Assembly: GCF_055900595.2 (NCBI RefSeq)
Contig: NZ_CM148325.1
DNA length: 64,000 nucleotides
Strand: one strand, 5' to 3'
The translations under genes and the position numbers were made by a program. Positions 39,285 through 54,579 of the stretch are shown piece by piece. The notes below the pieces were generated by a model. It ran no database searches. It was not told where the DNA came from and saw only the letters and a list, made by a program, of their open reading frames with translations. Numbering within the stretch: the first letter of the stretch is position 1; each line of letters begins with the position of its first letter.

Positions 39285-40193
39285 ATGCGGATGAATATGT
39301 CTGACTTTGCCACTTTCTTTGCCGTGGCCCGTAATCAAAGCTTTCGTGCAGCAGGCGATGAGTTAGGCTTATCTTCGTCCGCCATTAGCCATAGTATTAA
39401 AACACTGGAACAACGTCTTAAAATTCGCTTATTCAATCGGACAACCCGAAGCGTATCGTTAACGGAAGCGGGTTCTAATCTCTATGAACGATTGCGCCCA
39501 GCTTTCGACGAAATCCAGATCATGTTAGATGAGATGAATGATTTTCGTCTGACACCGACAGGTACGCTCAAAATCAATGCCGCCCGGGTAGCTGCACGTA
39601 TATTTTTAATGCCTTTACTGGTTGGTTTCACACGTGAATATCCTGATATTAAAGTCGAGCTCACAACTGACGACTCTCTTGTTGATATCGTCCAGCAGGG
39701 CTTTGACGCTGGCGTTCGACTTAGTGGCATCGTCGAAAAAGATATGATCAGCGTGGCGATCGGCCCGCCAGTGAAATTATGTGTAGCAGCAACGCCAGAG
39801 TACTTTGCAAGATATGGCAAACCCCGCCATCCTCATGATCTGCTTAATCATCAATGTGTTGTTTTTCGTTATCCCAGCGGCAAACCTTTCCACTGGCAAT
39901 TTGCAAAGGAGCTGGAAATTGCTGTCGCAGGAAATATCATTCTGGATGATGTTGATGCTGAACTGGATGCCGTTTTGATGGGTGCTGGTATCGGGTATCT
40001 GCTCTATGAACAGATCAAGGAGTACCTTGATACCGGTCGTTTAGAATGTGTACTGGAAGACTGGATCACAGAGCGTCCAGGCTTCCAGATCTATTACCCA
40101 AACCGCCAGTATATGTCCTGCGGCTTGCGCGCATTTCTCGATTATGTAAAAACGGGTCAGATCTGCCAGAGTCAGCGTCACCGACCACAATAA
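39285..40193 (+). CDS. ycaN: LysR-family transcriptional regulator YcaN
   Basis: 302-aa ORF with N-terminal HTH (FRAAGDELGLSSSAISHSIKTLEQRL) and LysR substrate-binding domain. Confidence 0.88.
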   Translation: MRMNMSDFATFFAVARNQSFRAAGDELGLSSSAISHSIKTLEQRLKIRLFNRTTRSVSLTEAGSNLYERLRPAFDEIQIMLDEMNDFRLTPTGTLKINAARVAARIFLMPLLVGFTREYPDIKVELTTDDSLVDIVQQGFDAGVRLSGIVEKDMISVAIGPPVKLCVAATPEYFARYGKPRHPHDLLNHQCVVFRYPSGKPFHWQFAKELEIAVAGNIILDDVDAELDAVLMGAGIGYLLYEQIKEYLDTGRLECVLEDWITERPGFQIYYPNRQYMSCGLRAFLDYVKTGQICQSQRHRPQ

Positions 40194-45451: not shown

Positions 45452-47896
45452 TTACACCTTTTCAACCTGAACAAGGTTTGTATGTGACGGATTCCCCTTA
45501 GCGAGAGGAGACGGACGTTGAGTGGTCAGTACGTTGATACAACCGCCCTTATCGACACGTTTTGCATCCGGGTCATACCAGGCACCTTCACCCAGTGCGA
45601 CCACACCCGGCATCATTCGTGGCGTCACTTTCGCCTCAATATGAACCTCACCACGATCGTTAAAGATCCTGACTTTATCGCCGTTGTTGATACCGCGTTT
45701 TTGCGCATCAAGCGGGTTGATCCACATTTCCTGACGGCAAGCCGCTTTCAGCACATCAACGTTGCCGTAAGTTGAGTGAACGCGAGATTTATAGTGGAAA
45801 CCCGTAAGCTGCAGCGGATATTGTTTGTTCAGCGGATCCTGATAACTTTCAAAGCCCGGCGTGTAGATCGGCAGTGGATCGATCACATCGCCTTCTGGCA
45901 ATTCCCAGGTAGCGGCAATGTCAGCAAGCGCCTGCGAATAAATCTCAATTTTACCCGATGGCGTGGTCAGTGGATTTGCCTGCGGATCTTCACGGAAGGC
46001 TTTATAAGCAACGTGATGCCCTTGTGGGTCGCGCTTTTTAAAGATCCCCTGCTTGCGGAACTCTTCAAACGTTGGCAGTTCAGGAATCGCTTCCCGCGAC
46101 TGGGCATACAGATGCCGCATCCACTCTTCCTGTGTACGGCCTTCAGTAAACTGTTGCTCAACGCCAAGACGTTTTGCCAGTTCGCTGGTCATTTCATAGA
46201 TGGTCTTACATTCAAAGCGCGGTTTAATCACCTGATCGTTGAAAATCACGTAAGACATATTCCCGCAGGATGCATCCAGTGCAAAGTCCATCTGTTCGGA
46301 AGCGGTGCAGTCAGGCAGCAGGATGTCAGCATATTTCGCCGATGAAGTCATGTGGCAGTCGATAACCACAATCAGCTCGCACTTCTTATCATCCTGAAGG
46401 ATTTCATGGGTACGGTTGATTTCAGAATGCTGGTTAATCAGGCAGTTACCGGCATAGTTCCAGATCATTTTGATCGGCACATCCAGCTTATCTTTCCCGC
46501 GCACACCATCACGCAGCGCTGTCATTTCCGGGCCTCGTTCAATGGCATCGGTCCACATAAACATCGAAATGCTGGTCTGGATCGGGTTTTCGAGGGTCGG
46601 CATACGGACAAAAGGTAAGCTGTATGAACCTTCACGCGCGCCGCTGTTGCCCCCGTTAATACCAACGTTACCGGTCAGAATCGCCAGCATCGAGATAGCA
46701 CGGGTTGCGATTTCACCGTTAGCGTGACGCTGCGGGCCCCATCCCTGGCTGATAAACGCCGGTTTGGTACTACCGATTTCACGAGCCAATTTGATGATTT
46801 TGTCTGCCGGAACACCGGTGATTTGCGAGGCCCATTCCGGCGTTTTAGCCACGCCATCTGGCCCTTCACCCAGAATATAAGCTTTATAGTGACCATTTTT
46901 CGGCGCACTGGCTGGCAGTGTTTTCTCGTCGTAGCCAACGCAATATTTATCGAGGAATGCCTGATCCACCAGGTTTTCGGTGATCATGACATACGCCAGA
47001 CCGTTAACCAGTGCGGCATCTGTTCCCGGACGAATAGGGATCCACTCATCTTCGCGCCCGGCACCGGTGTCAGTATAGCGCGGATCGATGATGATCATGC
47101 GAGCATTAGATTTCTGGCGCGCCTGTTCAAGATAGTAAGTCACCCCACCGCCACTCATTCGCGTTTCGCCAGGGTTATTACCAAACAGCACTACCAGTTT
47201 ACTGTTTTCGATATCCGACGGGCTGTTACCATCTGCCCAGCCGCCGTAGGTATAGTTCAAACCTTCCGCAATTTGCGCGGAAGAGTAGTCACCGTAATGG
47301 TTCAGATAACCGCCGCAGCAGTTCATCAGGCGAGCGACCAGGGTATTTCCCGGCGGCCAGGAGCGGGTCATGGTGCCGCCCAGCGTACCGGTACCATAGT
47401 TCAGATAGATAGACTCGTTGCCGTACTCTTTGATCAGGCGCTGCATATTGGTCGCGATGATGTCGTAGGCTTCTTCCCAGCTAATGCGCTCGAATTTGCC
47501 TTCACCGCGCGCCCCGACTCGTTTCATCGGATATTTCAGGCGGTCCGGATTGTAGACACGGCGACGCATGGAACGCCCACGCAGACAGGCGCGCACCTGG
47601 TGCAGGCCGTCATAGTTGTCATCGCCGGTATTATCCGTTTCAACATATTTAATTTCACCGTCCACAACGTGCATACGTAGCGGGCAGCGGCTACCACAGT
47701 TAACTGTACAGGCGCTCCAGATTACCTTTTCGTCTGACTTTGCCGGAAGGGCACTATCAACAGCGTGCGCAATCCGACTAAAAGGTAATGTTAATGCGCT
47801 GCTGGCCATTGCCAGGCCGCCGATCGCTGTCGTTTTTACCAAACCACGGCGACTCACCTCAGCAGCCAATACCGCATCAGGGATTTTCGTTTTCAT
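45452..47896 (-). CDS. dmsA: DMSO reductase catalytic subunit (molybdopterin; Tat leader)
   Basis: 814-aa ORF MKTKIPDAVLAAEVSRRGLVKTTAIGGLAMASSALTLPF.. with twin-arginine leader; matches DmsA. Confidence 0.97.
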   Translation of the reverse strand: MKTKIPDAVLAAEVSRRGLVKTTAIGGLAMASSALTLPFSRIAHAVDSALPAKSDEKVIWSACTVNCGSRCPLRMHVVDGEIKYVETDNTGDDNYDGLHQVRACLRGRSMRRRVYNPDRLKYPMKRVGARGEGKFERISWEEAYDIIATNMQRLIKEYGNESIYLNYGTGTLGGTMTRSWPPGNTLVARLMNCCGGYLNHYGDYSSAQIAEGLNYTYGGWADGNSPSDIENSKLVVLFGNNPGETRMSGGGVTYYLEQARQKSNARMIIIDPRYTDTGAGREDEWIPIRPGTDAALVNGLAYVMITENLVDQAFLDKYCVGYDEKTLPASAPKNGHYKAYILGEGPDGVAKTPEWASQITGVPADKIIKLAREIGSTKPAFISQGWGPQRHANGEIATRAISMLAILTGNVGINGGNSGAREGSYSLPFVRMPTLENPIQTSISMFMWTDAIERGPEMTALRDGVRGKDKLDVPIKMIWNYAGNCLINQHSEINRTHEILQDDKKCELIVVIDCHMTSSAKYADILLPDCTASEQMDFALDASCGNMSYVIFNDQVIKPRFECKTIYEMTSELAKRLGVEQQFTEGRTQEEWMRHLYAQSREAIPELPTFEEFRKQGIFKKRDPQGHHVAYKAFREDPQANPLTTPSGKIEIYSQALADIAATWELPEGDVIDPLPIYTPGFESYQDPLNKQYPLQLTGFHYKSRVHSTYGNVDVLKAACRQEMWINPLDAQKRGINNGDKVRIFNDRGEVHIEAKVTPRMMPGVVALGEGAWYDPDAKRVDKGGCINVLTTQRPSPLAKGNPSHTNLVQVEKV

Positions 47897-48066
47897 AATG
47901 GCTCACTCAAGCTTGCTCACGATTGATTCCAGTAACAAACCGTATTGTGTAATTATTTCTATAGCAGGTCGCTATATAGGCTTGTATATATCGAATAATT
48001 TGAAAATCAAAGAGATATGTAGATTTTCACTCGAAAGTAGTATTACGTGTAAGTGAGGAGTAATTA

Positions 48067-48080
48067 TTGTTCGGTATCAA
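48067..48080 (-). promoter_or_regulatory. FNR box of the dmsA promoter
   Basis: Minus-strand TTGATACCGAACAA (TTGAT-N4-ATCAA-like) about 170 bp upstream of the dmsA start. Confidence 0.55.
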
Positions 48081-48192
48081 AGGGAGACAAAAAAAGCGCC
48101 CGCAGGAGATTTAACGGTACTTACTCCTCTTGCTGATTTCCTTATTTTTCAATAAGTAAACAAAAACAAGGGGAGCAAATTATCACAAATAA

Positions 48193-49197
48193 TTACTGGT
48201 CGATGGACAGTTTATGGACACTTTCAGCCAGCGGATTAAAGCTGATCGCATCCTGTAAAAAGTCCGGTGAAAAATGCGCATACGTCATCGTTTGCTGAAT
48301 CGTGGCGTGACCCAGGATCCTCTGCAACGTGACGATGTTCCCGCCGTTCATCATGAAATGCGTGGCGAACGTGTGCCGCATGACATGCGTGGCCTGCCCT
48401 TTGGGTAAGTCGGGCTTCACCTCCTGAAGGATCTCCCTGAAACTGAGATAATCAACCTGATATAACAGGCCGGTCCGGCGGGTTTTAATTAACGGCACAA
48501 CGGAATCAGCTACAGGAACCGAGCGCGATTTCCCGTTCTTTGTGTTAAAGAACGTCACCCTGTTACCCACGATGTGTTCCCCGCGAAGCGTTGACGCCTC
48601 TTTCCATCTGGCCCCGGTCGAAAGGCACAGAATGGCAATGCGTCGTGCATCACCCTCAAGCCGTTTCAGAAGGCGATCAATCTCGTCATCTGAAAGAAAG
48701 GCCATTTCTGTATTCTGAACCTTGAGTTTACGTATTCCGCGCACAGGGTTTTCGTTATGATAAACCTCCGCGTCAATTAACAACGAAAACATCGCAGATA
48801 AGGCGCACAGGTCGCGATTGATACTGGACGGCATCAGTCCCGCCTGCAACTTATCCGAGCGATACTCAATCACGAATTTTCGTGTCATCTGGCTGGCGCG
48901 CGGGTCCCCCATTTCACGTATCACCTTCTCCAGTCTGGTTCTGTAGGTATCACCATATGCCTGATTACGACCATCAAGCATCCACCACACCTCAATCAGT
49001 TCTGATAACCGCCGTTGATCGGCGGGCCTTGCCTGCCACGGGTTATTGTGGAAATTCTGAAGAACGTATCTTTCGAATTCCTGCGCCTTTGATTTCAGGG
49101 TGAAAATCTTACGAATCCGCCTTCCTCCCGCCCCCTGAGGCCTTACATCAACCTGATAACGTCCGTCTTTGAGTTGCTTAATCGACATGATCAGCAC
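48193..49197 (-). CDS. int: P2-family tyrosine integrase
   Basis: 334-aa ORF; KQLKDGRYQVDVRP.., AILCLSTGARW.. and ATHVMRHTFATHFMMNGGNIVTLQRILGHATIQQTMTYAHF resemble P2 Int as I remember it. Confidence 0.92.
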   Translation of the reverse strand: MLIMSIKQLKDGRYQVDVRPQGAGGRRIRKIFTLKSKAQEFERYVLQNFHNNPWQARPADQRRLSELIEVWWMLDGRNQAYGDTYRTRLEKVIREMGDPRASQMTRKFVIEYRSDKLQAGLMPSSINRDLCALSAMFSLLIDAEVYHNENPVRGIRKLKVQNTEMAFLSDDEIDRLLKRLEGDARRIAILCLSTGARWKEASTLRGEHIVGNRVTFFNTKNGKSRSVPVADSVVPLIKTRRTGLLYQVDYLSFREILQEVKPDLPKGQATHVMRHTFATHFMMNGGNIVTLQRILGHATIQQTMTYAHFSPDFLQDAISFNPLAESVHKLSIDQ

Positions 49198-49257
49198 CTC
49201 CGACGGATAAACCTGTTAACCCCTGCTTACTGAACGCCGCCCGTTCAATATACAGCG

Positions 49258-49599
49258 TCAGCCAGCATTGCGGCCTGATTGGGGTGATTTTTGGGTATTG
49301 CGGGTTGAAACCTGATCGTCCTCCGACTGCGTGGAGCCATCAAGAGAGAGAGCCGGGGCGATCTGACCGGCAACAGGTAGCGTCTTATCTTTGATTAGCC
49401 AGAACATATATTTTTCAAACCGATCCACTTGAAGGACGGCCTCAACAATCTTTGCTCTGGCGATCTTTTGCCCTGACTCATAATTCCTGACAGTTGCCAG
49501 AGATAACCCTGTAATATCAGCAAATTGCTTTTGAGTTAGCCCTTCCGTCTTGCGTATCAAACGCAACTTTTTCGCATAGTCTATTGACAAGATACTCAT
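49258..49599 (-). CDS. CI/C-type immunity repressor (HTH)
   Basis: 113-aa ORF; HTH LTQKQFADITGLSLATVRNYESG and C-terminal ..QIAPAL.. resemble the P2 C repressor; divergent from cox; SD AGGAG upstream. Confidence 0.8.
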   Translation of the reverse strand: MSILSIDYAKKLRLIRKTEGLTQKQFADITGLSLATVRNYESGQKIARAKIVEAVLQVDRFEKYMFWLIKDKTLPVAGQIAPALSLDGSTQSEDDQVSTRNTQKSPQSGRNAG

Positions 49600-49702
49600 T
49601 TGGGGATTAATCTCCTACAAAAGATAACCGTACGATTATCTTTACAAGTCATCAAAAATCATCAAAAGGCGCAACAAGCGCACCAATGCAAGAGGATAAC
49701 AA
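49600..49702. promoter_or_regulatory. repressor/cox divergent promoter-operator region
   Basis: Contains an 18-bp near-palindrome GATAACCGTACGATTATC (about 49623-49640) and tandem TCATCAAAA direct repeats (about 49649-49667) between divergent regulatory genes. Confidence 0.5.
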
Positions 49703-50224
49703 ATGCGGGAGATTATTGCCGACAAAGAGTTATCTGGCGCTCAACCGGTTCAGGATGATGGCGCGGACAATGAATTCATTGAAGCTGCCAACGACAACGA
49801 ACACCTGGAAACCAAAACCAGACCGTCCTACAAAAAGGGCGCAACCCTACGACTGGACGGCCCAGTCGCAGGACTTGTGTCACTGGAAAAAGGGGCTGCC
49901 TATCTGGGGGTAACAAAATCTGCGCTACGCGCCGCCATTCAGCGCGGGCAGATGCCGGGTCACAAAACGCGCTCAAATCCCGAAGATGAAAAGTCAGACG
50001 GTACATGGTGGTTTAACGCCAAAGCCTGGGACGAACTAGCCGACGAACTACTGGAGTGCGAACCGCCAGAGTGGCACAACTGGAAAAGCTACTGGACGTA
50101 CGACCGCAAGAAAAGAAAGTTTTCACCGGCAAACAAGGAGGACTGCCAGACCGTTAAAGGTAAGCAGGTTTACTCCCCCAGAGTTTCAAAACTGGAGCAA
50201 CTCAAAAACAACCAGCCCGGCTAA
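49703..50224 (+). CDS. Cox/excisionase-like DNA-binding protein (long form, 173 aa)
   Basis: ATG with SD AAGAGGA; central HTH-like segment AAYLGVTKSALRAAIQRGQMPG followed by W-rich segment resembling the Cox fold; the N-terminal 55 aa are extra relative to about 90-aa Cox proteins, so the true start may be internal. Confidence 0.55.
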   Translation: MREIIADKELSGAQPVQDDGADNEFIEAANDNEHLETKTRPSYKKGATLRLDGPVAGLVSLEKGAAYLGVTKSALRAAIQRGQMPGHKTRSNPEDEKSDGTWWFNAKAWDELADELLECEPPEWHNWKSYWTYDRKKRKFSPANKEDCQTVKGKQVYSPRVSKLEQLKNNQPG

Positions 50225-50232
50225 ACACGAAA

Positions 50233-50439
50233 ATGACCAGCAATATCATCAATGCCGTTTTGAACATTATATTCCTGGAATTAGGCGTAGTGGTGATTTA
50301 TCTGCTTGGCAAGCTAACAGGACAAAAAGAACGTTTTATTGTCCTCAACGTTCATTACGTCGCAGCTTATTCTAAAGGGCTTTTTCCAATAGTTGTTGGC
50401 GCGGGACTTACAGCGTTTGTCATCTGGCTCATCAGGTAG
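50233..50439 (+). CDS. small hydrophobic membrane protein (68 aa, 2 predicted TM)
   Basis: ORF MTSNIINAVLNIIFLELGVVVIYLLGKL..FPIVVGAGLTAFVIWLIR; weak SD, 8 nt after cox-like stop. Confidence 0.4.
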   Translation: MTSNIINAVLNIIFLELGVVVIYLLGKLTGQKERFIVLNVHYVAAYSKGLFPIVVGAGLTAFVIWLIR

Positions 50440-50721
50440 AGGCACACAACGTAATCATTCGTAGCTATATTTCCGCAATAGTATTCAAGTAAAGGAAGAC
50501 AACAACATGAAACCAAGACAAAGATTAACCTCCAGAAGTAGTGACGCATTGCACTTTAAAGCAAAAGACATAATAGCCACAACAAAGGTAGGAGCATAAG
50601 TCTATATACACTTTCAGAATTTCTATCTGGAGAGAACATTAAAAACGGAAGAGGAAGCCAATGAGTATTTGTTATTCATGAAAGATTGCATAGAAGGAAA
50701 AATAAGCGCAGGAGATAAATA

Positions 50722-51030
50722 ATGCGAAAACATTATTCACAGCCACATTTCCGCAACAGTGCACCACGCAGCAATAACCGCTGGAGCCTGCGCGAAACAC
50801 ACGCAACGCCGGGCGGTCATGCTGTAAAACAGACTGGTCAACACACCTGGCTGATTGAGCAGGCCGGACTCGTGATCCACAGATGCCACCGCAATCCGTT
50901 TACCGGAAACCGCATTTTTGCACTGAGCAGCGGCGACAATCAGTTCGGACAGGATTTCACACTGCACGAAGCCTTGCGAACTGCCGACCGCTTAATCGAG
51001 GGGCGCAGCTTTCAGCATACCGACTACTAA
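50722..51030 (+). CDS. hypothetical early-region protein (102 aa)
   Basis: ORF with strong SD (GCAGGAGATAAATA-ATG); competing antisense ORF 50737..50967 lacks an SD. Confidence 0.5.
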   Translation: MRKHYSQPHFRNSAPRSNNRWSLRETHATPGGHAVKQTGQHTWLIEQAGLVIHRCHRNPFTGNRIFALSSGDNQFGQDFTLHEALRTADRLIEGRSFQHTDY

Positions 51031-51068
51031 GGCAAAAGGAGTCTTAATAAGACAGAAGAGGCAGCAAG

Positions 51069-51311
51069 ATGAAAAGAGCCTATAAAGAACTCATTAACGA
51101 CGCGCTTCAGAATTACCATTACGGACTTACAAGCCGTGGCACTAACGGTGACGCTGTTTCACTTGCAGCACTGACTACAGCAATCAAGGGCCTGACCTGT
51201 TGCGCCTTTGGTTCCGGAGATAATGAAGCTCTGACGGAATTACAGGCCATTAATAAAGACCTGTCTGAAGGAAACGTAATAACCCCCTTTGTAATTCAGG
51301 AGGAAGCATGA
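51069..51311 (+). CDS. hypothetical early-region protein (80 aa)
   Basis: ORF MKRAYKELINDALQNYHYGL.. with SD GAAGAGG upstream. Confidence 0.5.
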   Translation: MKRAYKELINDALQNYHYGLTSRGTNGDAVSLAALTTAIKGLTCCAFGSGDNEALTELQAINKDLSEGNVITPFVIQEEA

Positions 51312-51433
51312 GCGTATTTATGTCATGGTTAATTCTTATCCTTGCCATTATTTGCGCTGTGGAGATTATGCGGGTAATTAACAGCATTAACACCATTGAA
51401 TCGTTATTTACTGGCGATAAGCGCCGTAAATAA
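51308..51433 (+). CDS. putative 41-aa membrane peptide
   Basis: ATGA overlap with the preceding stop; MSVFMSWLILILAIICAVEIMRVINSINTIESLFTGDKRRK; below the ORF-track size cutoff, found by reading the sequence. Confidence 0.3.
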   Translation: MSVFMSWLILILAIICAVEIMRVINSINTIESLFTGDKRRK

Positions 51434-51513
51434 ACAGGCGTTTAACACCAGAAACAACCAGAAACATCCGCTCACGCGGAGGGGTTGACCCGCTCAAAAA
51501 GGAGAAATCAGGA

Positions 51514-51807
51514 ATGCTTAATAATAAAAAAAACCGAATCATTGATAACAGTGAACAGGTCAACAAAATAATCGAAGGCACAAACAAATTAATTAAGAAA
51601 AAAAACAAACTAAGCCGTGAATTAATGGAACATCCGGAAGAAATATTATTAGCCATGATGCACCAGACAGAAGCGATAGCCATCGCCCTTGCCGTGCAGG
51701 CGCTTTCTGAGTTCCGGGAAGAAAACATCAGGCTGGCTCAGGAGCTGAAAAACCTCAGACGTCAGCTTCAGAGCACTGAGGCTGGCACGTCATCACGAAT
51801 ACACTGA
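51514..51807 (+). CDS. hypothetical coiled-coil early-region protein (97 aa)
   Basis: ORF with SD AAAAGGAGAAATCAGGA-ATG; Lys/Asn-rich N-terminus then amphipathic helix. Confidence 0.5.
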   Translation: MLNNKKNRIIDNSEQVNKIIEGTNKLIKKKNKLSRELMEHPEEILLAMMHQTEAIAIALAVQALSEFREENIRLAQELKNLRRQLQSTEAGTSSRIH

Positions 51808-51817
51808 GGGCCACACC

Positions 51818-52027
51818 ATGACTGCAATTCTGAGAAGACGCAATAAAACGCTTTTTACCGATACATCCGGGATGGAATACGAAGTGGAAAGCAGTGTCAT
51901 CGCCACCACCACCCGATGCCCGGCAGGTGACGAACTGATTTACGTCCACCTGACGGACGGGTCACAGATAACCGTCCTGACAGAGTCATGGCGCGAACTC
52001 GAGATAATAAGCGAGGTAAGAACATGA
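51818..52027 (+). CDS. hypothetical early-region protein (69 aa)
   Basis: ORF MTAILRRRNKTLFTDTSGMEYEVESSV.. in the co-oriented string of early genes. Confidence 0.45.
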   Translation: MTAILRRRNKTLFTDTSGMEYEVESSVIATTTRCPAGDELIYVHLTDGSQITVLTESWRELEIISEVRT

Positions 52028-52236
52028 GCAGCAAACACGATACCAACGCACGCAGACCAGGCAAAGAGGCGCGTCACCATATCGCCGTAATGCGCAACCT
52101 GCTTATGAGTGAAATCGACGATTTTGTGGCAGGCCTGGGGCAACCGGGCGAACCAGCAACACCAGGCCAGATACACAGGGAATTACGCCGCCGCGTGGAA
52201 AACGTCGTGGATTACGTCATAAACCCGAACGACTGA
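52024..52236 (+). CDS. hypothetical early-region protein (70 aa)
   Basis: Internal ATG of track ORF 51988..52236 overlapping the preceding stop (ATGA); MSSKHDTNARRPGKEARHHIAVMRNLLMSEIDDF.. Confidence 0.45.
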   Translation: MSSKHDTNARRPGKEARHHIAVMRNLLMSEIDDFVAGLGQPGEPATPGQIHRELRRRVENVVDYVINPND

Positions 52237-52275
52237 CGGGAACATGGCGAGCGTCAGATGACACACGCAGGGCAC

Positions 52276-52758
52276 TTATCGGGAAAAACCGATCGTAATG
52301 GCAGCCATCATCTTTTCAGCGAAAGAGAGAGATTCACGATGACTGATATTCAGAGACATACAGGCTTTGTTGTACGCCACATTTTCCATGCATTCCAGGA
52401 CAGGAGAGTCATGCATCTCAAGCTCTGGAAGGCGTGCCAGCAGAGCTTCCGTACTGAGGAGGGCGCTTTTGGTAATCAACTCATTGTAGCGATGGGCATG
52501 CTCACTCGCCGCCTGCGCACGTTGCCCGAAACGACATATGAAATTACAGGCTCCGAGAACCACCACCACTGCCCCAAGCACCCAGCCGAAATGCCAGCCG
52601 GCTACGATGAACGCACCCGCCGCAAGGATCAAAATGTTGATGATCGCATCAAGGCGACGATTGAATACCGCCGCGATGCGCTCCAGCCAGTAGCTGTACC
52701 AGAGACGGAACATGACCTCATCCCGTTCTCTCGATTTTTTACGTTGGTTGTTTTGCAT
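52276..52758 (-). CDS. reverse-oriented two-TM membrane protein (160 aa), candidate moron
   Basis: Minus-strand ORF with paired hydrophobic helices (AIINILILAAGAFIVAGW / FGWVLGAVVVVLGACNFICRF) flanked by basic residues, SD GAGGG upstream; the overlapping plus-strand ORF 52258..52893 is His/Arg-rich and looks non-coding. Confidence 0.45.
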   Translation of the reverse strand: MQNNQRKKSRERDEVMFRLWYSYWLERIAAVFNRRLDAIINILILAAGAFIVAGWHFGWVLGAVVVVLGACNFICRFGQRAQAASEHAHRYNELITKSALLSTEALLARLPELEMHDSPVLECMENVAYNKACMSLNISHRESLSFAEKMMAAITIGFSR

Positions 52759-52992
52759 GGTGTTTTATCCCTCATCGTCATCGCTCTGCCCCTAATCAGC
52801 GCAGAGTGCAGGGTAACCTGGCTCGTGGAATTTTTGCAGCCAGACATCTTTACCCCCGGGCGTGTTGAACAAAGTGTCCGCCAGATCCACTGAACGGCGG
52901 ATTCATCAATGCTAACACGCCCTTCTTTTCCGGTTGAAGGCGAAAAAACCGGACCATTACCCCGACACAAAACAGAACAACGGAGAACAACT

Positions 52993-53547
52993 ATGCCCGC
53001 ACTTAAACCTATGGGTGTATCAGGTGTACCACCGAAGCATGTCAGAGCCTGGACACAACAGGAAGATGCTCTACTGGTCGGTTTATACCCCTCCCACACC
53101 GTACCAGAACTGACAAAACACTTTCAGAGAACCGGGCCAGCAATACGAAGCCGCATCCGTCTTTTGCTCTCTCAGGGGGTTATCCACACCAAACAACCCC
53201 CCCTGAATACAAAAGAACTCAACACGCTCATCAGGAATCGCCACACAAAAACCATCCGGGAACTCGCGAATGAACTGGGGCGCTCGACATCCACGGTGGG
53301 ACTGAACCTGAGAAAAAGAGGGTACCGGTTCAGGAAATACGGGGAACTCCACCACAGAGCCAGATACAGCGATCACCTGGTGGAGTTGGTAACTGAACTG
53401 CGCGATGAACAGGGGATGACATTCAGCGAAATCAGAAAGTACATCCGGGACACGGCCGGGATATCCCTTAAAAGATGGGTCCTCGCCCGGCTTTACGCAC
53501 GATATACCGCCGCTGACACCGTGCTTTGCGAACTGCTACCGGACTGA
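52993..53547 (+). CDS. putative DNA-binding protein with repeated HTH-like segments (184 aa)
   Basis: Internal ATG of track ORF 52909..53547 with SD ACGGAG; segments ..TIRELANELGRSTSTVGLNLRKRG.. and ..MTFSEIRKYIRDTAGISLKRW.. look HTH-like. Confidence 0.5.
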   Translation: MPALKPMGVSGVPPKHVRAWTQQEDALLVGLYPSHTVPELTKHFQRTGPAIRSRIRLLLSQGVIHTKQPPLNTKELNTLIRNRHTKTIRELANELGRSTSTVGLNLRKRGYRFRKYGELHHRARYSDHLVELVTELRDEQGMTFSEIRKYIRDTAGISLKRWVLARLYARYTAADTVLCELLPD

Positions 53548-53637
53548 GTAACCACTATGCACACACAAAAAAACCGCTTGCCATGCCGCAATCAGTCAGG
53601 TTACATTTCCGCTGCACCTCATAAAACGGGTGCCGGG

Positions 53638-53854
53638 ATTGCAACCCCCGCTGACAACTACAGCGCACAACCGCGCCAGCGGTTTTTTTGTGCGTACCGT
53701 ATCGCCACGTCTTTTTCGCGCCAGAATTATGGCGGGGCGTATGGGGCCGACTTCGGTCGGGCCGGTTTCTGTAGTTGCCGGTGGTTGCAACCCTGTACGT
53801 CTCGCCACCCAGAATTGCAACCTCTGGATGGTGAGTTTTCAAAACTTGCAACTA
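53638..53854. repeat. cluster of four (A/G/C)TTGCAAC(C/T) repeats with a UUCG-loop hairpin
   Basis: ATTGCAACC (about 53638), GTTGCAACC (about 53784), ATTGCAACC (about 53814), CTTGCAACT (about 53845); hairpin GGCCGAC-TTCG-GTCGGGCC at about 53745-53763. Confidence 0.5.
53669..53689 (+). terminator. rho-independent terminator
   Basis: CCGCGCC-A-GCGG stem followed by a T7 run, downstream of the 52993..53547 gene. Confidence 0.55.
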
Positions 53855-53867
53855 CAGAGGCCACACC

Positions 53868-54092
53868 ATGGCAAACCGCAAACAACAGCGCGCATACGCT
53901 GCGCGTCGTCACATCCAGACTGAAATCAACCGCAGACTTTTCCGCGCATTCCGCGTCGCGCATATCATGCACATCAATATGCTGCATGAGCGCAGCCACG
54001 CACTGTCAAACATGTATTCCGCCGCTGTATTCAGCTACCTGGCGGATGACCTGCGCGAGCTGCAGGACCTCATTAACCAGCACCACCACTAA
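53868..54092 (+). CDS. hypothetical small protein (74 aa)
   Basis: ORF MANRKQQRAYAARRHIQTEINRRLFRAF.. with SD AGAGG 7 nt upstream, directly after the TTGCAAC repeats. Confidence 0.4.
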   Translation: MANRKQQRAYAARRHIQTEINRRLFRAFRVAHIMHINMLHERSHALSNMYSAAVFSYLADDLRELQDLINQHHH

Positions 54093-54160
54093 TCAACATC
54101 CCGGAGCCATCCCGCCCCCGTACGCGGGAGGCTTCCGCACGTCCGTTTCCGGAGGTTCTC

Positions 54161-54574
54161 ATGAAGAGCGTTAAGGGACTTTCAGATATTCAGGATTTTT
54201 TTAACTGGATGTGGGCGGTGGATCCACGCCTCGCTTCCCGTCTCAATGACCTGCACGACTATTACCGCCGCGCCTGTAAACAGGCAGCCCGCAGCGCTGC
54301 CACATACGGGGATTTTTCCTTCACCGTTGACGACCGTTACCGCGTGGATGTCAGAGACCAGAACCACAGCCTGGAGCTGGGCCTGTTCCACATCAACGGG
54401 TGCGACAGCAGCGTTATCAGCTGGTCATCGTCAGAAATGGTGCTCGTTCTGGAAATGACCACCCACAGCGTGGTCGTGAAAGGGATTAAAACAGCAGAAG
54501 ACTTTATCGCTGAATACCAGCGCCTTCTTGTGCTGTACCGGGCTGCATTTCAGAAGGCAACAGCAGGGGAGTAA
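54161..54574 (+). CDS. hypothetical protein upstream of gpA (137 aa)
   Basis: ORF with SD GGAGG; ends 5 nt before the gpA start. Confidence 0.55.
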   Translation: MKSVKGLSDIQDFFNWMWAVDPRLASRLNDLHDYYRRACKQAARSAATYGDFSFTVDDRYRVDVRDQNHSLELGLFHINGCDSSVISWSSSEMVLVLEMTTHSVVVKGIKTAEDFIAEYQRLLVLYRAAFQKATAGE

Positions 54575-54579
54575 GCGGA

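Follow-up and report, generated by a model that had tools for sequence, protein, structure and literature searches.

The 296 bp that separate dmsA from the neighboring integrase gene, positions 47897-48192 of the 64,000-nucleotide stretch of DNA analyzed here (the window), very probably contain the attL junction of a P2-family (Peduoviridae) prophage that was integrated into the intrinsic terminator of serS by tyrosine-integrase site-specific recombination. This assignment fixes the exact prophage boundary at 48106/48107 and finds both serS and the FNR promoter of dmsA intact. The features that define the junction are the following.

45452-47896, minus strand: coding sequence of the host gene dmsA, which lies downstream of attL (open reading frame list and RefSeq annotation of an identical genome, L002 17853-20297).
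48067-48080, minus strand: FNR box TTGATACCGAACAA of dmsA promoter P1, intact and the same as in K-12 (read from the sequence and from the K-12 alignment).
48092-48112: attL copy of the core (K-12 and attR alignments, pattern count, and the copy at the rraA site).
48107-48192: noncoding part of the P' arm, at the Cox-binding position of the P2 attP (collinear with the annotated P2 attP; not present in K-12).
48193-49188, minus strand: int, encoding a P2-family tyrosine integrase of 331 amino acids (Pfam, PHROG 1 integrase, and alignment to P2 Int).

Both dmsA and int are on the minus strand, the window being oriented in reverse of K-12 at serS-dmsA, and the gap between them contains no serS coding sequence, as a previous sequence-only reading of this DNA had stated. 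The dimensions given in that reading were also close to those found. The K-12 serS-dmsA spacer, put at about 240 bp, is 238 bp in a K-12 derivative, and the FNR box, placed about 170 bp upstream of the dmsA start, has its center 177 bp 5' of the dmsA ATG (in the window, 48067-48080 reads TTGTTCGGTATCAA, the reverse complement of the box). Alignment to K-12, which had been proposed as the means to locate the breakpoint, is collinear from dmsA through 48106 with three substitutions and then breaks, short of 48192. Across the junction K-12 reads ...GGGAGACAAAAAAAGCGCCCGCAGG|CGCTTTTTAGATTCAGAAAAATTGGGTATTA (serS stop), whereas the window reads ...CAGG|AGATTTAACGGTACTTACTCC... The host/phage breakpoint is 48106/48107 and not the int stop, and the final 86 bp of what appears to be intergenic sequence (48107-48192) are phage P' arm DNA that has no counterpart in K-12. 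Thus, the proposed closeness of attL to the FNR promoter of dmsA was borne out but the distance was not: 26 bp, instead of about 110 bp, separate the junction from the FNR box, an 86-bp shift toward the promoter, and the core begins 11 bp beyond the box.

The core itself is present at both ends of the prophage. Positions 48092-48106 (AAAAGCGCCCGCAGG, 15 nt) are exactly the same in the K-12 attB, in attL, and in attR, and 48107-48112 (aGaTTT) are the phage form of the host CGCTTT, agreeing at four of the six positions (nGnTTT). The 21-nt core pattern, AAAAGCGCCCGCAGG(aGaTTT), was found once in the window and in none of 100 shuffles. Because attR lies beyond the window, it was read in strain ECCNB12-2 (NZ_CP033635.1), whose sequence matches window positions 47000-64000 with 100% identity and which supplied the far junction and the prophage annotation. 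There, in the orientation of the window, attR reads ...TAAGTACCATGC AAAAGCGCCCGCAGG CGCTTTTTAGATTC...TTA (serS). The core is therefore duplicated, and its attR copy, the recovery of which had been suggested as a check, adjoins an intact serS. This copy and the K-12 break at 48106 agree with the first of the two insertion points that had been considered, between serS and the dmsA promoter. The apparent crossover falls between 48106 and 48107, right after ...CAGG, and the exact positions of Int cleavage are presumed from the sequence. The same junction register is present in UTI89, AVS0193, 569R5, and EC958.

The module that would have carried out this recombination is of the P2 type. Its further components, and the part of the prophage within the window, are listed below.

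48107-64000: the 15.9 kb at the left end of the prophage, int through the capsid gene (NZ_CP033635.1 annotation; the other ~21 kb and attR are beyond the window).
48119-48180, minus strand: inverted repeat that folds as a long, imperfect hairpin in the interval separating the core from the int stop (-27.9 kcal/mol, z -2.9).
48203-48221: arm-type Int-binding repeats of the P' arm, ATGGACAgtttATGGACAc, contained in the 3' end of int (unique in the window; aligned with the P2 "Int P' arm").
49258-49599, minus strand: immunity repressor of the C type, encoded on the int strand and upstream of int (RefSeq; PHROG 147 transcriptional regulator).
49703-50224, plus strand: Cox-family DNA-binding protein, divergent from C (RefSeq; PHROG 23196).

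The integrase has the Pfam domains Int_N (3.8e-30) and Phage_integrase, the former corresponding to the P2-like N-terminal arm-binding domain, and the catalytic R-K-H-R-H-Y set (R194, K217, H268, R271, H294, and Y303) is invariant in comparison with P2 Int. Joining the left arm of attR to the right arm of attL reconstructs an attP that reads catgcAAAAGCGCCCGCAGGAGATTTaacgg and includes the phage core gcAAAAGCGCCCGCAGGaGaTTTaacgg. The order of its elements, from the ogr-side terminator through the P arm, IHF position, core, Cox region, and int stop to the P' arm, matches that of the annotated P2 attP. Two TGGACA arm-type repeats are found in each arm, on both sides of the core; those of the P arm (gATGGACAttatcTGGACAc in the attR of ECCNB12-2) align with the annotated P2 Int arm site, and the consensus for P2-type arms is tgTGGaCa (PMC3448106). 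The core common to attP and attB, doubled at attL and attR, matches exactly over 15 nt and imperfectly out to 21 nt. In the alignment with P2, a conserved A/T-rich block corresponds to the IHF site, and the 86-bp spacer, within which an inverted repeat is conserved, corresponds to the Cox region; the phage also has a Cox-family gene. By analogy with P2, IHF would be expected to bind in the P arm and Cox in the P' arm, and excision would depend on Cox. The Cox-family protein is likely to be the excision directionality factor and switch repressor, and the divergent C/cox switch with int downstream of C is arranged as in P2-type phages. Overall the element is ~37 kb and encodes int, C, cox, replication genes, portal, terminase, capsid, tail, ogr, and hok/gef.

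The hairpin between the int stop and the core is kept in five phage lineages, and in a fold of their alignment it comprises 24 pairs, 2 of which have compensatory changes, with several G-U/G-C switches. The hairpin does not have a U-tract and is thus no canonical terminator. It could be a DNA-level protein-binding repeat or a structure in the 3' untranslated region of int.

The similarity to P2 (NC_001895) extends over the order ogr, terminator, P arm, IHF, core, Cox region, int, C, and cox, with TGGACA-type repeats on both arms, a P' arm within the 3' end of int, and a homologous core (P2, AAAAAATAAGCCCGTGTAAGGGAGATT; here, gcAAAAGCGCCCGCAGGAGATTT). P2 uses nonidentical secondary attachment sites, and so does this phage, for which the rraA site described below is the example. 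In contrast to these likenesses, Int is 55% identical to the P2-group Ints (tblastn, 96% of length) and 51% identical to P2 Int in a three-way alignment, with the divergence mostly in the core-binding region; attB is different; and the Cox protein has 173 amino acids rather than the 91 of P2. The 27-nt P2 core that serves the classical loci (locI, locH, locII, and locIII) differs from the core at serS, and the impression that this is not a classical P2 attachment locus was therefore correct. In WPhi, PhiD145, 186, and Fels-2/SopEPhi, the core and the site are particular to each Int lineage, and these cores and loci differ from those found here. P2-type integrases favor intergenic integration over tRNA genes, whereas phages of the 186/Fels-2 type target tRNA or tmRNA genes and have long cores and another arm consensus (PMC3448106).

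The serS-dmsA attachment site has already been catalogued and is not new. PhiECO5, a P2-like prophage at 911187-948481 in UTI89, was described as a new immunity class with its own integration site (Nilsson et al. 2011, Bacteriophage 1:207, PMC3448106, Table 1). In the RefSeq annotation of UTI89 (NC_007946), these coordinates are exactly the serS | hok-ogr ... cox-C-int | dmsA interval. No literature naming a serS-dmsA prophage site was found, and the site was traced only through the coordinates in that table (PMC3448106).

The prophage in the window shares with PhiECO5 the serS-dmsA site, the placement of int beside dmsA and of hok/gef-ogr beside serS, and the junction register, which in UTI89 places both junctions within the terminator hairpin of serS, past the serS stop but before the FNR box. 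The Ints are 91% identical, and the arm repeats, the A/T-rich block at the IHF position, and the P' hairpin are held in common. The two phages differ in their cores. The 20-nt core of PhiECO5, AAAGCGCCCGCAGGCGCTTT, is fully identical to attB, and both PhiECO5 junctions retain a complete terminator, whereas the phage in the window has AGA for CGC plus one extra A and its attL hairpin is broken. Its core differs from attB at 48107 and 48109, which makes it a variant of the PhiECO5 type with another attP allele. Furthermore, the P' arms are only ~80 to 87% identical, and the phage in the window has a larger, repeat-rich hok/gef region at its attR end.

The serS-dmsA site was empty in 5,075 of 5,425 complete E. 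coli genomes, and a related int was next to dmsA in ~343 (~6%). When the occupied genomes were typed by identity to positions 48050-48200, ~303 of the ~343 had an attL of the PhiECO5 type (80 to 90% identity) and ~26 had that of the window (at least 99%). EC958, the ST131 reference strain, has a PhiECO5-type prophage at serS-dmsA, and the three closest "phage" database records also derive from prophages of this kind at this site. The element in the window can thus be assigned to a known integrase/site group that is also found in the model strains UTI89 and EC958, and it is an ordinary member of that group with a variant attP allele.

The host target is the intrinsic terminator of serS. The attB corresponds to its hairpin, AAAAAAAGCGCC-CGCA-GGCGCTTTTT, which on the serS strand reads AAAAAGCGCC-UGCG-GGCGCUUUUUUU and folds with -16.3 kcal/mol. 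The core is 29 to 43 nt beyond the serS stop codon, and 11 bp separate the end of attB from the dmsA FNR box downstream.

A second chromosomal location of the same phage made it possible to determine which parts of the core belong to the phage. In SCU-115 the phage (98.9% nucleotide identity; 329 of 331 Int residues) is not at serS but lies between rraA and zapB, 4 nt beyond the rraA stop (junctions at L006 5998-6022 and L007 9735-9765). Its attL consists of host AAAAGGCACCGCAAGG followed by AGATTTAACGG, and its attR consists of CATGCAAAAGCGCCCGCAGG followed by host TGCCTTTTTT; the copy accordingly has AAAAGCGCCCGCAGG on the attR side and AGATTTAACGG on the attL side. Because the copy at rraA carries both halves of the core (AAAAGCGCCCGCAGG and AGATTT), both are phage owned, which confirms the reconstructed attP. 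The rraA site, when reconstructed, is once again a terminator hairpin, AAAAGGCACC-GCAA-GGTGCCTTTTTT. An occupied or mutated serS site was rejected as the reason for the use of rraA in SCU-115, in which the serS attB is empty and intact.

Two more genomes have distant relatives of the phage at the same rraA junction, with Ints that are 88% and 87% identical and with the attP cores AAAACCACCCGCAGG-AGGTTT and AAAAACCGCCCGCAGG-AGATTT. The rraA-zapB terminator is thus occupied in 3 of the 5,425 complete genomes, compared with ~343 for serS, and these represent three phage lineages with three attP cores. Only ~3 nt (AGG) are common at the apparent crossover of the rraA site, and the switch between parental sequences comes immediately after (C)AGG in all four of the heterologous events. 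From these junctions we infer that one Int cleavage site is directly after (C)AGG and that this Int lineage tolerates mismatches around the crossover, as has been reported for P2. A more speculative reading of the ~3-nt match at rraA in three independent phage lineages is that strand exchange may be unusually tolerant of heterology. Two attP alleles at one attB, one of them terminator breaking, a recurrent site at rraA, and a constant post-CAGG switch provide data points on the core specificity of P2 integrases.

Integration at this position raises the question of dmsA expression, for which one further promoter feature is relevant.

48040-48045, minus strand: likely -10 hexamer TAATAC of dmsA P1, 31 bp downstream of the center of the FNR box (read from the sequence).

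Class II FNR promoters need little specific DNA upstream of about -60. For dmsA P1, a promoter of this class, the FNR site is given as -41.5 in a table of Myers 2013 (PMC3688515) and in Bearson 2002 as quoted in PMC11363960. The spacing of the putative -10 hexamer and the FNR box fits this arrangement, and because it matches a site at -41.5, transcription from P1 would start near 48032. With numbering inferred from the same FNR position, the core spans about -60 to -80 of P1, and host DNA is kept to about -74. Upstream of -74, host DNA is replaced by the P' arm and by int, transcribed toward dmsA. Studies of dmsABC regulation in such strains will need to consider that phage DNA, including an int gene that points the same way as dmsA, makes up everything upstream of about -74. 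Downstream of that point, integration has left intact the FNR box, the -10 hexamer, an A-tract at -56 to -62, and the whole dmsA leader. With this stretch preserved, dmsA is expected to remain under FNR control.

The fate of the terminator is different at the two ends. The window has the phage A at 48107 and at 48109, where the host has C. Strand exchange that switched right after ...CAGG would deliver the complete hairpin to attR and the two phage A's to attL. The attL sequence becomes GCGCC-CGCA-GGAGA, and the hairpin is lost; when the int-sense RNA is folded, the long P' hairpin (48119-48180) is the sole structure and the U-run stays unpaired. The hairpins of attB and attR are intact, with the U-run at attR cut from 7 to 4, and a strong phage terminator is located ~100 nt beyond the attR hairpin. 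In contrast, attL of the UTI89 type, with its hairpin and U7 run, separates int from dmsA by a good terminator. In the window type, the minus strand from C to dmsA yielded no terminator-like site. A simple terminator scanner flagged the UTI89 attL and missed the K-12 terminator, in which A/U pairs use up the T-run, so that its negative result for attL is weak alone; the case for hairpin loss rests on the folding and the two base changes, not on the scanner.

One possibility, then, is that the prophage alters expression of dmsABC, through loss of promoter DNA beyond -74 or, in this core variant with no terminator at attL, through read-through of the lysogenic C-int transcript that results in FNR-independent expression or in promoter occlusion. 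The shared orientation of int and dmsA, the broken attL hairpin with no terminator-like site from C to dmsA, and the contrast with the majority UTI89-type attL, which retains hairpin and U7, are all consistent with this. However, P1 as a class II promoter would need little of the DNA that was lost, and its FNR box, -10 hexamer, A-tract, and leader are all intact. In addition, int expression is low in P2 lysogens. The gene is also inducible in the lysogens UTI89 and EC958, although both have the terminator-retaining type of prophage, and induction does not follow occupancy: dmsA was induced 4.6-fold in EC958, 11-fold in CFT073, and ~47-fold in UTI89 (PMC12096835), of which EC958 and UTI89 are occupied and CFT073 is empty. 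An effect of the prophage on dmsABC is unlikely. The idea that the prophage causes the strong HOCl induction of dmsA in UTI89 (PMC12096835) was rejected as evidence, as EC958, also a lysogen at this site, shows the weakest induction.

From the sequence of attL, some C-int transcription may read into dmsA. A more specific version of this proposal, in which the minority AGA allele removes the terminator between int and dmsA and a constitutive C-int transcript runs into the dmsA promoter and leader, is similarly doubtful. If correct, the resulting oxygen-independent component of dmsABC expression, or occlusion of P1, would amount to small-scale lysogenic conversion by transcriptional fusion.

It is less probable still that the junction is a fossil, a defective remnant that was fixed by descent at a site that Int has ceased to use. 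In favor of this view, two copies have a tape-measure gene that is annotated as a pseudogene, and the phage collection contained no isolated phage with this Int. Three close "phage" records (vB_EcoM-569R5, vB_EcoM-705R2, and Entero_P88(23)) were rejected as isolates, as they are prophage predictions that include dmsA and dmsB. A search of IMG/VR for free attP with an exact 23-mer spanning the reconstructed sequence gave 0 matches. However, recent mobility is indicated because the element has a full-length P2-like gene set over ~37 kb, its Int retains every catalytic residue, near-identical phages (98.9% at the nucleotide level) are at two chromosomal sites in unrelated strains, and occupancy is patchy (6%), with hosts from chickens, humans, and water. 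The annotated interruption of the tape-measure gene (L003 15028-17223 in ECCNB12-2; L007 1189-3384 in SCU-115) may reflect a genuine defect, an insertion, or faulty annotation, and because the gene is annotated as broken in both copies, the viability of the present-day phage is uncertain.

The second insertion point that the sequence-only reading had considered, the 3' end of the serS coding sequence with a replacement C terminus supplied by the phage, can be dismissed: it is suggested only by the a priori habit of many integrases of targeting tRNA genes or gene ends and by the core falling within the serS transcript (3' untranslated region and terminator), but a single SerS protein (WP_000886683.1) is common to K-12, ECCNB12-2, UTI89, and SCU-115, host sequence at attR continues through the serS stop codon and for 28 nt beyond it, and the crossover, 29 nt past the stop and outside the gene, leaves the coding sequence untouched. 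Insertion into the serS terminator thus remains the preferred reading.

Several other features of the region and of the prophage were observed. One is in the dmsA leader.

47970-47993: palindrome CGCTATATAGGCTTGTATATATCG, in host DNA outside the reach of the prophage (read from the sequence; collinear with K-12 except for one substitution).

The palindrome resembles the consensus for a ModE operator. Position 47989 is T in the window and C in K-12 (TATACA there), which makes the second half-site of the palindrome a perfect TATATA.

On the other side of dmsA, the annotation places a partial pseudogene between pflA and ycaM, at about 40083-40193 of the window (L002 12484-12594), a region in which K-12 has ycaN and ycaK. 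The attachment site of PhiD145/PhiD160 is ~10 kb from dmsA, at MG1655 coordinate 950293 (PMC3448106), and may fall near this pseudogene. In EC958, besides the prophage at serS-dmsA, a second P2-like tail gene cluster is present just past aroA, ~16 kb off (L011 27452-28444 and 44913-50000, respectively).

Within the prophage, accessory open reading frames are located before the portal gene (58928-59638, plus strand), at the position of the tin/old slot of P2, and in the early region (52276-52713, minus strand; 52909-53547, plus strand). Their only matches were to PHROGs without an assigned function or to a D5-like regulator family, and PADLOC defense models had no match to four cargo open reading frames of the prophage. 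The ogr-attR region of ECCNB12-2 (L003 7900-10750, outside the window) is mostly unannotated, with one hok/gef gene and one hypothetical protein. Rfam gave no match in this hok/gef-rich region at the attR end. It is built of diverged direct repeats of 95 to 231 nt around the hok/gef gene, and the number of annotated hok/gef genes at this position varies, with one in UTI89, two in KY179, and three in OkiPb01677.
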